From contig JAEOUA010000007.1 of assembly GCA_016839555.1 (NCBI GenBank), forward strand, positions 224,001 to 288,000: DNA of 64,000 nt. The letters run 5' to 3'. Positions 7,187 through 18,202 of the stretch are shown here, in pieces; within the stretch, counting starts at the first letter, position 1; each line of letters begins with the position of its first letter. Source of the DNA: Promethearchaeota archaeon. GTDB taxonomy: Archaea > Asgardarchaeota > Lokiarchaeia > Sigyniarchaeales > SOKP01. The position numbers and the translations under genes are program-made. Below the pieces are notes generated by a model that made no database searches, was not told where the DNA came from, and saw only the letters and a list, made by a program, of their open reading frames with translations.

Positions 7187-8683
7187 TCACAATTGATTTA
7201 GGAGAGTAATTAAAAAATTCCAAAACTTTTCTACACTTGGCACATTCAATTTTTCATCTGGCGAATGGCATGCTAATATAGTTGGCCCTATGGTAATCAT
7301 TTGTAAATCTGGAGCCTTAACTTTAAAAGCACCACATTCCAGACCTGCATGCATAGCTTTTATTTGTGGTTCTTCATTATTTATCTCTTTATATACTTTT
7401 TTTGCTATAGAAAGCAATTTTTCATTAAAATTTGGTTCCCAGACCCCATAACCTCCAACATTTTTAATTTTGACATTTAACTCCGGCAAATCCAAAAGAG
7501 CAGAAACTTTTTCAGCTGTTTGAGAATTACATTGTAAATTAAAACTTCGATGGAGCATCTCTATTTTTAGTTTACTCTTTTTTGTATTGATTGATGCTAA
7601 ATTGGTAGAGGTATATATTAAATCTTCTAAATTAGGATGTCTTGAAATAGGTCCGTGAGGGAGAAGATATAATACATTTAATATTTTAATTTGAAGATCG
7701 TTAGTTATAACCATGTTAGATATCTCACTTTTATTTAACTTTTCCGATTTTATTTTAATTTGGCTCTCTACGCCATTATATTCAGTATTTAAATCATCTT
7801 GTACTATTTTTAATAAACTAACAATTTCAGAAAATTCTTCCTTTTGTATATACAGAATTGCAAAAGCTTCTCTCGGGATTGCATTAAAACTTTTTCCTCC
7901 TGAAATAGATTCTAAATAAACATCAAAATTTTTATTGATAGCTCTTAAAATTCTTGCTAATAATTTAATAGCATTTGCCCTCCCTTTATCGATATCTAAA
8001 CCTGAATGCCCCCCTAATAACCCTTTAATGGAGATTTTTATAGGAAGTAAATTGGTAGTTAATTCATCAATAGGTATTCTTTTAACTCGTATTTGAATAG
8101 TTGAGTACATACCTCCTACACTGCCAATTACTATGGTTTCAGCGTCCATACAATCAAGATTTATTAAATAATTCACATCGAGTATATCTGGAGATACTTG
8201 GAATGCCCCGATTAACCCTTCTTCTTCATTTACTGTGAATAAAAGTGTTATAGCTAAATTTTGGAGATTCAGCTTATTCTGATAAATTAATTTCATTAAG
8301 GCTAAAGAATATGCCAATCCTACCCCATTATCAGCTCCTAAAGTGGTGCCCTCTGCTGTAATCCATTCTTGTCCATTTACTTCAATCTCTTTTAATTTCA
8401 AAGGATCTTTAGTAAAATCATGTACTATATTTGAACTTTTTTCACAGACCATGTCAAAATGACTCTGTAATATGATTTGAGTAGCGTTTTTAGTGTTTGA
8501 AGGTATTTTGACCAATAAATTACCCGCTTTATCAATTATTGTTTTAAAGCCAAATTTTTCCGCTTCCTTTTTGATATAAGCTCTTATTGGATCTTCGTTT
8601 CCAGAACATCGTGGAATTTCTGAAATCTTCTTAAAATACTCCCAAAATTCCTTTGGTTTGCTTAACTGATTAAAATCATTCAT
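7187..8683 (-). CDS. pepD: Aminoacyl-histidine (beta-Ala-His) dipeptidase, M20C
   Basis: IPRCSGNE, LQSHFDMVCEK, TTLGADNGVG, NEEEGLIGA, GGHSGLDI, NAIPRE, HAGLECG, HSPDE. Confidence 0.92.
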   Translation of the reverse strand: MNDFNQLSKPKEFWEYFKKISEIPRCSGNEDPIRAYIKKEAEKFGFKTIIDKAGNLLVKIPSNTKNATQIILQSHFDMVCEKSSNIVHDFTKDPLKLKEIEVNGQEWITAEGTTLGADNGVGLAYSLALMKLIYQNKLNLQNLAITLLFTVNEEEGLIGAFQVSPDILDVNYLINLDCMDAETIVIGSVGGMYSTIQIRVKRIPIDELTTNLLPIKISIKGLLGGHSGLDIDKGRANAIKLLARILRAINKNFDVYLESISGGKSFNAIPREAFAILYIQKEEFSEIVSLLKIVQDDLNTEYNGVESQIKIKSEKLNKSEISNMVITNDLQIKILNVLYLLPHGPISRHPNLEDLIYTSTNLASINTKKSKLKIEMLHRSFNLQCNSQTAEKVSALLDLPELNVKIKNVGGYGVWEPNFNEKLLSIAKKVYKEINNEEPQIKAMHAGLECGAFKVKAPDLQMITIGPTILACHSPDEKLNVPSVEKFWNFLITLLNQL

Positions 8684-8949
8684 ATATTACTTTTTGCCTC
8701 ATGTATTTGTATTTGATATTCCATATCTTTTCTTATTAATCAATATTGTAAATTATTCTTATAATTATCTTTACAACTTTTTTAATAAACTTATTTTATT
8801 CTAAGAATTATTATTTTTGAAATAGTATAAATACGTGTAAGATTGCTTTTGTGTTAAATTTGATAATTAAAAATTTCTGAGAAAAAGATTTTAAATAATA
8901 AGGTTACTAATAATAATATATTAATAATTTTTTTAAAGAGTGGGAAATA

Positions 8950-9270
8950 ATTAGCGAAGATAAAGAAATATGCGATTTATGTGGATTACCGAAAGAGCTA
9001 TGCATATGTTCTGATCTAAGCGCTGACGAACAAGAAGTTGTAATTTCGAACGAGACAAGAAAATGGGGAAAAGTGGTTACACTGATTTCATTCAAGGGAA
9101 AGATTGATGCAAATTTAGATGCACTCCTCACTAAAGCCAAGAAAAAACTTGGAGCAGGTGGAACAATACGCGGTTCAAATAAAATTGAGTTAAGAGGGGA
9201 TCACCGCTTTAGAATTAAAAAATTTCTAACAGAACAGGGCTACGACAAAAATAGGATCAGAATAGAATAA
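8950..9270 (+). CDS. sui1: Translation initiation factor aIF1 (SUI1/eIF1 family); probable non-canonical ATT (or ATA 8947) start
   Basis: The ORF-track frame extends upstream without a stop to encode SEDKEICDLCGLPKELCICSDL...ETRKWGKVVTLI, then LGAGGT and IELRGDHR. The in-frame stop is at 8914-8916. Confidence 0.9.
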   Translation: MSEDKEICDLCGLPKELCICSDLSADEQEVVISNETRKWGKVVTLISFKGKIDANLDALLTKAKKKLGAGGTIRGSNKIELRGDHRFRIKKFLTEQGYDKNRIRIE

Positions 9271-9305: not shown

Positions 9306-9337
9306 TTTCTTTTTTTCTTTTTTTTATATTTATTTTA
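9306..9337 (+). terminator. Oligo-T tract, likely archaeal terminator of the aIF1 gene
   Basis: T-rich runs about 35-65 nt after the stop. Similar tracts follow genes ending at 6142, 27642, 38972 and 56259. Confidence 0.45.
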
Positions 9338-9390: not shown

Positions 9391-10323
9391 TTAATATATA
9401 ATATATTTATGAGGATCATCAGGTAACGCTAAAATATCTTCTAAAATTGATTTAAATTCTTTTTGAATCTCGGGTGGTTTATCAATTAATAATTTTGCTA
9501 CTTTATTATATTTTTCCGCTAATTCAATATTACCTAATAGTTTAATTTTATTTGAAAAGGAATATAAATTAATATAAGCTTCTCGATAAGGTAAATCAAA
9601 TAAGGATTTTGAAACCGGTATCTTTTTAAAATTTTCAGAAATAGCTTTTTTAGTTTCAGAGAGATATATTGTAATTTTTCTTATAAGTAATTCCATTTCC
9701 GAATTCACTTCTTTACGCATTTCTTTTATTCTTTCTAATTTTTTTCCATCATTGAAAGTTTCCGCAATTCTTTGCATTTGATTTAATATAGTTATTTTGC
9801 GTGGAAGGCTCTTAACAATTTCGAAACGATTTTGGAGGAAATTATATTCTTTTAAATATTTGGTTTTTTGAGCTTGTTCGATTCTCTCTTCCTCTTCTAT
9901 CTCAATTTTTTCTAATAAATTACTTTCATTTCTTAATAACTCTAGAATTTCATAATCTAACACTTTAAGTCTTTTAAGTGTCCCATCCCAAGTTCTAATA
10001 AGTTCAGAATGGTTTCTTAATATGTCAATAATTTTGGGAATAATTTTAAGTAATTCTAATTCATCTTCTTGATCGGCTATAATAACAATATCTATTCCAA
10101 GCTGTCTAATATGAGTACTATTTACGATATAATTACCCATTTCAATGTTTTTAAGGGTTTTGTCTGAACTTTCTGCCACTAATTCTTTTACAAATGATTT
10201 TATTGCAGAAAAGAAGGAGGAAAATAATTCTAATTTTTGATCACTTATTTGTTTTTCGAAGATTTTTTTCCATATGAGAATTCCGCTTCCACTCTGATAA
10301 ATAAACATATTATAGACAACCAT
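9391..10323 (-). CDS. Longin-like domain protein with helical C-terminus
   Basis: N-terminal MFIYQSGSGILIWKK...ELFSSFFSAIKSFVKEL...LKNIEMGNY...IVIIAD is a typical longin pattern. Confidence 0.65.
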   Translation of the reverse strand: MVVYNMFIYQSGSGILIWKKIFEKQISDQKLELFSSFFSAIKSFVKELVAESSDKTLKNIEMGNYIVNSTHIRQLGIDIVIIADQEDELELLKIIPKIIDILRNHSELIRTWDGTLKRLKVLDYEILELLRNESNLLEKIEIEEEERIEQAQKTKYLKEYNFLQNRFEIVKSLPRKITILNQMQRIAETFNDGKKLERIKEMRKEVNSEMELLIRKITIYLSETKKAISENFKKIPVSKSLFDLPYREAYINLYSFSNKIKLLGNIELAEKYNKVAKLLIDKPPEIQKEFKSILEDILALPDDPHKYIIY

Positions 10324-17410: not shown

Positions 17411-18202
17411 ATAACTCTAATATTTGGACCTTTAAATATTCTAGATTATACTCAAGGATCCTTTAGCTTATTATTTTCATTAATTTCTGTTGTACTTGGA
17501 GTCAGTATTCTCTCAAAATATTTTAAATTTAAACAAAGAATTTATATTTTTATGGGATTAACTTGGATTGGGATGGCTACTCCATGGTTTCCTGATTCCA
17601 TCAGTTTTCTTATAATATTGATAGCGAGAATAACTATGCCAATTGAAATATATATACTTATAGGAACAACTCTACTACCCATCCTTTTGTTAATTTGGAT
17701 GGCCGCATTCAGTGAATTACTTTATAAAGATAAACAGAAGAAAATTCTTATGATTTTTGCGATTATTGCTATTATTTATGAATTGATATTTTTTGTGTTG
17801 TTTTTTTTGGATGCAAAAGCATATATTGGAGAATATCAGAGATATTTTCAAGTAGAATTTAAAGAATTTATTACATTATTTGATCTAGCTTTACTTGTTA
17901 TCGTTTTAATTACGGGTATAATATTCGCTAAAAAATCTTTATCCTCATTAGACGAAAAAATCCATTTAAAAGGAAGATTCCTTCTGGCAGCATTTATATC
18001 TTTTTGTATAGGAGCCGCATTAGATGCTTCAACAGGCTTAATCTTTACAGATCTATTCGGGATTTCTAATACAAATCCGTTTATTTCAATTTTCGTTGTT
18101 ATAATTCGAATAATTCTTATTTCATCGGCTTTTGAATTTTATATAGGCTTTATGCTTCCTAAATGGGTTGAAAATCTAATGATAAAATCTAGAGAAGAGT
18201 AA
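17411..18202 (+). CDS. Seven-TM membrane protein (receptor/sensor-like); probable non-canonical ATA start
   Basis: Frame is open upstream of ATG 17552 to a TAA at 17405 and adds a TM helix (GSFSLLFSLISVVLGVSILSKYF). An SD-like AGGTGA (17398-17403) lies 7 nt before ATA 17411. Confidence 0.65.
   Translation: MTLIFGPLNILDYTQGSFSLLFSLISVVLGVSILSKYFKFKQRIYIFMGLTWIGMATPWFPDSISFLIILIARITMPIEIYILIGTTLLPILLLIWMAAFSELLYKDKQKKILMIFAIIAIIYELIFFVLFFLDAKAYIGEYQRYFQVEFKEFITLFDLALLVIVLITGIIFAKKSLSSLDEKIHLKGRFLLAAFISFCIGAALDASTGLIFTDLFGISNTNPFISIFVVIIRIILISSAFEFYIGFMLPKWVENLMIKSREE

Follow-up and report, generated by a model that had tools for sequence, protein, structure and literature searches.

A probable AUU start codon on the aIF1 gene of a Promethearchaeota lineage and its possible part in self-limiting control

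The initiation factor aIF1 polices start-codon choice in archaea, including the Asgard archaea, the closest known relatives of eukaryotes. The closest described cases of self-control come from the other two domains. Bacterial infC, which encodes IF3, starts at AUU and is under translational autocontrol (Butler, Springer and Grunberg-Manago 1987, as cited in PMC4705826), and eukaryotic eIF1 achieves autoregulation with a poor-context AUG (Ivanov et al. 2010, as cited in PMC6237735 and PMC4705826). Our literature search turned up no description of an aIF1 gene with a non-canonical start, of aIF1 autoregulation or of such self-limitation in archaea, and a recent review of archaeal initiation mentions neither the start nor the autoregulation.

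The aIF1 gene analysed here lies in a 64,000-nucleotide stretch of DNA (the window) from a Promethearchaeota archaeon of an uncultured lineage. It shares with infC the trait that defines that system, a fidelity factor that rejects non-canonical starts and whose own gene appears to begin at a near-cognate AUU behind a Shine-Dalgarno (SD) element, and in both the abnormal codon is conserved across relatives. It differs from infC in that aIF1 and IF3 share neither fold nor ancestry, in that the feedback established for infC is a proposal for aIF1, and in that AUU and AUA also start many other genes of the aIF1 lineage. The likeness to eIF1 is one of descent and function: aIF1 is the homologous (SUI1) protein, has the same role in start stringency and has a suboptimal initiation site on its own gene. 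The AUG in poor context that typifies eIF1 is absent, the aIF1 start being AUU with no AUG; the weak element is a non-AUG codon with an SD-type leader, whereas in eIF1 it is the poor Kozak context of an mRNA that is scanned. This archaeal eIF1 homologue would be using a bacterial-style device, a near-cognate codon behind an SD element. Were the feedback real, the principle would extend to each of the three domains of life, and where eIF1 control came from would become a testable question.

The aIF1 gene and its start codon

An in-frame TAA closes the aIF1 frame upstream, leaving it open from 8917 to 9267 on the forward strand (Table 1). The codons that follow are TAT ATT AAT AAT TTT TTT AAA GAG TGG GAA ATA ATT AGC GAA, then GAT AAA GAA ATA and the TGC of the first cysteine (8971). 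The first-pass annotation had noted that no ATG, GTG or TTG stands in frame between the TAA at 8914 and the cysteine motif, and that ATA at 8947 and ATT at 8950, the latter giving a protein of 106 residues, are present; the window sequence confirms each point. Not until GTG 9073, within the SUI1 domain, does the frame offer a canonical codon, and starting there would remove a third of that domain together with the zinc knuckle CDLCGLPKELCIC, which lies upstream of it and whose four cysteines are invariant across 25 orthologues. The gene-caller product P0019 begins at this GTG and is accordingly a 65-residue protein without the knuckle.

The assignment of the product to aIF1/SUI1, also made in the first pass, holds. 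It matches Pfam PF01253 (residues 27-98; 52.9 bits against a cut-off of 25.5, E 5e-14) and NCBIfam NF002096 (98.4 bits against a cut-off of 98), and aligns end to end with Methanocaldococcus jannaschii aIF1 (residues 6-105 with residues 3-101 of PDB 4mo0, E 6e-19), the protein also present in the Pyrococcus abyssi 30S complexes 5jb3 and 5jbh. There is only one SUI1/aIF1 match in the 3.74-Mb assembly (92% complete, 29.6% G+C): this is the genome's initiation factor gene, with no spare paralogue. Both flanking genes sit on the opposite strand, so the aIF1 gene stands alone.

Table 1 Features of the aIF1 locus, in window coordinates
Feature	Position	Strand	Basis or remark
Upstream neighbour, 498-aa peptidase	7187-8683	-	Side observation
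Candidate BRE/TATA promoter element AAAAAGATTTTAAATAA	8882-8898	+	Match to conserved block AAAAAGATTTTTATAAGA
Upstream in-frame stop TAA	8914-8916	+	Read from sequence
Weak SD-like GAGTGGG	8938-8944	+	GUGG 8940-8943, 10 nt before ATT
Out-of-frame GTG mini-ORF, GTG GGA AAT AAT TAG	8940-8954	+	Read from sequence; judged incidental
Probable ATT start codon of aIF1	8950-8952	+	Homologous to ATT/ATC/TTG of related loci
aIF1/SUI1 coding sequence	8950-9270	+	106 codons plus TAA; Pfam, NCBIfam, 4mo0 alignment
N-terminal zinc knuckle C-x2-C-x6-C-x-C, CDLCGLPKELCIC	8971-9009	+	Read from translation
SUI1 domain	9028-9243	+	Pfam PF01253, residues 27-98
T-rich tract, possible archaeal terminator	9307-9325	+	Seen in sequence; function inferred only
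Downstream neighbour, 310-aa ORF	9391-10323	-	Side observation

We gathered the aIF1 loci of relatives, which public titles assign to the Promethearchaeota, Loki-type Asgard archaea. A canonical in-frame start before the zinc knuckle is missing from 88 of 95 distinct related loci, so its absence from the window is no product of chance or of an assembly quirk. ATG is found at the aIF1 start of none of the 95. The first pass had called for this comparison of 5' regions and had named routine use of ATG by orthologues as the finding that would overturn its proposal; within the family, orthologues do not use it. Where the homologous codon could be analysed (79 species-level loci), it is ATT in 76 and ATC in three, and it sits seven or eight codons before the first cysteine. 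The relatives carry an in-frame stop one to four codons upstream of it (for example, TAA AAA ATT or TAG CGT ATT).

Two relatives are instructive at this codon. L311, 75% identical, has TTG at the homologous position (TTG AGC GAC GAT, against ATT AGC GAA GAT in the window), and L002, a species of the window's own genus, has an in-frame GTG in place of ATT. The few changes of the aIF1 start within the family thus lead to ATC, TTG or GTG, all of them weak. Starting at ATT 8950 also gives an N-terminus of normal length when compared with the solved M. jannaschii protein. The third position of this codon is uninformative about the start, since ATT predominates across relatives both here and at the neighbouring isoleucine codon. 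Conservation of ATT or ATC, with TTG replacing the same codon in L311, strongly supports the start proposed in the first pass, and we regard ATT 8950 as very probably the start codon of aIF1.

Public records handle this codon unevenly. The NCBI proteins P0006, P0008, P0015 and P0016 begin with methionine at the ATT homologous to 8950 with no canonical codon there, which indicates that the annotation pipeline already uses ATT silently, and P0018 and P0020 are annotated from the isoleucine codon that adjoins the first cysteine. The N-terminus of aIF1 is inconsistent between records as a result, and common gene callers truncate an essential gene.

Signals upstream of the start

The window genome's sole 16S rRNA copy is cut by a contig end (contig C5, 603237-603905), and for this reason the anti-SD was taken from relatives, whose 16S 3' end reads GGATCACCTCC. 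This copy matches the 16S model in three pieces, and the short stretches left without a match (between model positions 496-528 and 592-614) could be insertions.

The first pass had drawn attention to a purine-rich AAAGAGTGGG just upstream of ATT. The tract is there, but as an SD element it is poor: its duplex with the 16S 3' end reaches -3.9 kcal/mol, a value that 39% of random 22-mers from the genome equal or better, and GAGTGGG pairs with the anti-SD only through GUGG at -10. The motif is clearer in the main clade of relatives, which has AGGTTGTGA with GTG at -13 and duplexes of -7.9 to -9.3 kcal/mol, energies that 3-6% of random 22-mers attain. These loci keep AAAGGTTGTGA, placing GTG exactly 13 nt before ATT and matching the anti-SD at seven of nine positions. 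In the window genome as a whole, GTGA is most frequent at 9-11 nt before ATG starts.

Farther upstream, a BRE/TATA-like block, AAAAAGATTTTTATAAGA, is strongly conserved about 68-85 nt before ATT in 77 distinct relatives, and could help to define the promoter geometry of Asgard archaea. The transcription start can be provisionally placed near 8920 from this block, whose position points to a leadered aIF1 mRNA carrying some 30 nt of 5' UTR; a leaderless mRNA is unlikely because the block lies too far upstream. We considered and rejected two other devices. A regulatory RNA structure finds no backing, as the start region of the window folds worse than its shuffled copies (z +1.5), the start regions of 71 relatives yield no consensus structure and the region has no Rfam match. 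An upstream in-frame TTG-TGA 'start-stop' occurs in many relatives, and its TTG is not conserved, being replaced by CCG, TAG or TCG.

In all likelihood, then, the aIF1 mRNA is leadered and monocistronic and would be read from AUU 8950 by the ordinary initiator tRNA decoding a near-cognate codon. An SD element would assist initiation at AUU, weakly in the window and more strongly in relatives. ARAGORN finds only 28 tRNA genes in the window genome, most with predicted introns; tRNA-Met is not among these 28, nor did a search of the genome find the initiator-type anticodon arm GGGCTCATAACCC, and the initiator tRNA gene is either interrupted or unassembled. A dedicated initiator tRNA able to decode AUU or AUA could conceivably exist in the lineage.

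Near-cognate starts elsewhere and the case for selection on aIF1

We scanned the whole genome for codons preceded by an SD-consensus 5-mer at the right distance and by an in-frame stop no more than 15 codons upstream with no canonical start between, and followed by at least 100 codons, the first 20 of them free of canonical starts. The scan returns ATG 101 times, TTG 30, ATT 24, ATA 16, ATC 5 and GTG 4, against 11 for AAA, 8 for AAT, 7 for TTT, 4 for TTA and 3 for TAT among control codons, several of whose sites are neighbours of ATT or ATA matches. Pfam N-terminal coverage identifies seven other genes that depend on ATT or ATA, their first canonical codon lying downstream of an essential N-terminal region. 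Four start at ATT, encoding a Ras-like GTPase (first canonical codon 26), a GPN-loop GTPase (45), a ParA/CbiA-like ATPase (39) and a GFO/IDH/MocA oxidoreductase (40); three start at ATA, encoding an ABC ATPase (88), a guanylate kinase (56) and a Snf7/ESCRT-III protein (72). In the window genome, ATT and ATA starts lie 9-11 nt after the G of a GGTGA-type motif.

These seven genes make near-cognate initiation a habit of the lineage and, with ATT and ATA starts being common in this genome, the codon alone is no mark of regulation. The aIF1 start has the same codon type and the same kind of upstream motif as the SD-directed ATT and ATA starts found genome-wide. It departs from them in its history: aIF1 has ATG in none of the 95 loci, and most control genes revert. 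A further candidate lies within the window itself, at about 17411-18199 (+), where AAGGTGAATAAAAA-ATA is followed by a 262-codon ORF without a Pfam match.

Within the same 40 relatives we compared homologous start positions across control genes; as related species are not independent samples, these comparisons of start turnover do not amount to formal tests. The GPN GTPase start is ATT in 13, ATG in 10, ATA in one and TTG in one of 25 family members, with ATT and ATG both present within the window's genus and ATG throughout the neighbouring family. For the ParA-like gene, ATT is confined to the window genome, the other family members having ATG (19 of 20) or CTG (one). For guanylate kinase, the window genome has ATA at the codon where a congener has ATG, and another genus has ATT. 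The gene for aIF1A, likewise a small initiation factor and so comparable, starts with ATG in at least 24 of 30 genomes and is never without a canonical start. The abnormal start codon is therefore conserved more in aIF1 than in the GPN, ParA-like or aIF1A genes. The ABC ATPase is the exception among the controls: its start is near-cognate across much of the family, so aIF1 is not alone in having kept such a codon for long.

Outside the family, about 65 aIF1 genes could be analysed in a sample of 120 Asgard genomes; about 34 of them start with ATG and 13 with GTG or TTG, and about 18 have no canonical start. Among the last, two families place ATA 9 nt behind AGGAGG. Another family has CTG 7-8 nt behind (C)AGGAG, alternating with GTG at the identical codon in sister genomes, and in a fourth Asgard family the aIF1 start is probably CTG, with GGAAGGTG, then 7 nt, then CTG (loci for the CTG, ATA and GGAAGGTG cases: L247, L248, L254 and L255, also L242, L245, L246 and L253; L212, L215, L216 and L218; L228 and L231).

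The lack of ATG at aIF1 in 95 loci, the turnover at control genes and the weak codons on aIF1 in other Asgard families together make selection specific to aIF1 likely, and selection for a weak aIF1 start has likely acted in several lineages. What such selection might maintain is suggested by biochemistry. In vitro, Saccharolobus (S.) solfataricus aIF1 blocks the formation of 30S complexes on AUU and allows it on AUG (PMC4705826; also PMC6237735). If the protein of this lineage likewise destabilises initiation complexes at near-cognate codons, initiation at the AUU of its own gene would drop when aIF1 is plentiful and rise when aIF1 is scarce, so that start-codon stringency would be under negative feedback, as with infC and eIF1. 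Should it keep any bias against AUU, synthesis from its own AUU must fall as its activity rises. We infer that it does discriminate against AUU and so alters its own synthesis; autoregulation of aIF1 is plausible on these grounds, and an AUU start combined with infC-like, self-limiting feedback is the explanation that we think best, with moderate confidence.

The strongest competitor accepts the AUU start and dispenses with feedback. Start choice would simply be relaxed in an AT-rich lineage, the codon being inherited or subject to drift, or else serving to hold aIF1 constitutively low. Much of the genome speaks for this: the excess of ATT (24) and ATA (16) over control codons (3-11), the seven genes that need such starts and the near-cognate starts kept by the ABC ATPase. 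Two further observations count against feedback, namely that about half of the aIF1 genes outside the family start with ATG and that the SD match in the window is no better than chance, and the aIF1 of this lineage may tolerate AUU, which would be a point against feedback too. Relaxed choice accounts less readily for a gene without ATG in 95 loci while the GPN, ParA-like and guanylate kinase genes flip to ATG even within a genus, for the ATG start of aIF1A in the same genomes, or for the different weak codons that several other Asgard families put on aIF1. Moreover, any bias of aIF1 against AUU would bring some feedback automatically. We hold a start without feedback to be possible, in a tentative sense, and continue to prefer self-limitation.

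A broader and more doubtful proposal is that the weak aIF1 start is the set-point of a cell-wide control of start-codon stringency. Self-limited aIF1 would then keep dozens of AUU- and AUA-started genes, small GTPases and ESCRT-III among them, translatable, and these genes would respond together to aIF1 activity. If this were true, the recurrent AUU, AUA, CUG and GUG starts on aIF1 across Asgard archaea would represent, in archaeal form, the feedback that eukaryotes have retained on eIF1.

Other readings of the start region

Translation might instead begin elsewhere in the aIF1 frame, at ATA 8947, at ATT 8920 or at ATA 8968 next to the first cysteine. Each of these codons is near-cognate and in frame, and the records P0018 and P0020 start at the equivalent of 8968. 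Conservation of position, however, belongs to ATT 8950 only; many relatives have a stop one or two codons upstream of it, and ATT 8920 and ATA 8947 have no counterpart in most of them. The TTG of L311 replaces precisely the equivalent of ATT 8950. The isoleucine codon beside the cysteine varies between ATT, ATA and ATC and lacks an upstream motif at the right distance. A start at any of the three is improbable.

The out-of-frame GTG mini-ORF that the first pass described as overlapping ATT is present in the window and, across the more than 100 loci in which we compared the arrangement, offers a more elaborate reading. Initiation would occur at GTG 8940, and the aIF1 frame would be entered either by an RF2-like +1 frameshift at AAU-UAG or by termination and then reinitiation at the overlapping AUU. 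Most of the family does have a five-codon frame that opens at the motif's GTG, 13 nt upstream (10 nt here), and ends in a TAA or TAG overlapping ATT by one base, and prfB, the RF2 gene, likewise has a short upstream frame ending at a stop that overlaps the entry to the main frame. The resemblance does not extend to the parts on which the prfB mechanism depends, since in aIF1 the upstream start is unconserved, no slippery re-pairing site exists and several relatives lack the arrangement. The closest relative, L312 (92% identical), has neither GTG nor any other start in the mini-ORF frame; L015 and L019 have no start codon in it; and L004 and L021 have an early stop within it. At the ATC-type loci (L008, L009, L060, L065 and L067) the mini-ORF stop does not overlap the start. 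In L010, L018, L020 and L022 the GTG is one base closer (-12; in L022, -15 from the ATT equivalent), and therefore in frame with aIF1. The codon preceding the stop is AAU, UAU or AGU, none of which could re-pair on AUU. With upstream start, re-pairing site and stop all unconserved or missing, we reject a prfB-like programmed frameshift, and entry from GTG 8940 by either route is very improbable. The GTG lies within AGGTNGTGA, which matches the anti-SD at seven of nine positions and is located where the genome puts GTGA before ATG starts; it most plausibly belongs to the ribosome-binding motif, which would leave the mini-ORF incidental.

That a sequencing or assembly error, one extra G at 8942-8944 whose removal would bring GTG 8940 into the aIF1 frame, masks a canonical start is a negligible prospect, given that about 95 related species with independent assemblies lack such a start too, and the error is needless because the GTG is not shared by L312, the closest relative, where the sequence is GAGGGAAAATAATT, ATT being kept with no GTG whatever.

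Two minor observations concern the surroundings and a neighbouring family. Counterparts of the 498-residue peptidase stand beside aIF1 in L312 and L313, where they carry Peptidase_M20 and M28 domains, and the neighbourhood is thus conserved in close relatives. In L026 and L362, a pair of species from one genus of the neighbouring family, the aIF1 frame has an in-frame TGA followed by AAA AAC ATA CCA; six consecutive A are immediately preceded by an ATG (L026) or TTG (L362) that is out of frame by one base. Their start is either this ATA or the out-of-frame codon followed by a +1 shift on the A run, yielding MKKIPK, the sequence that L023 gives with its in-frame GTG; the GTG of L023 may itself be an SD element, as GGTGA, 5 nt and then ATA.
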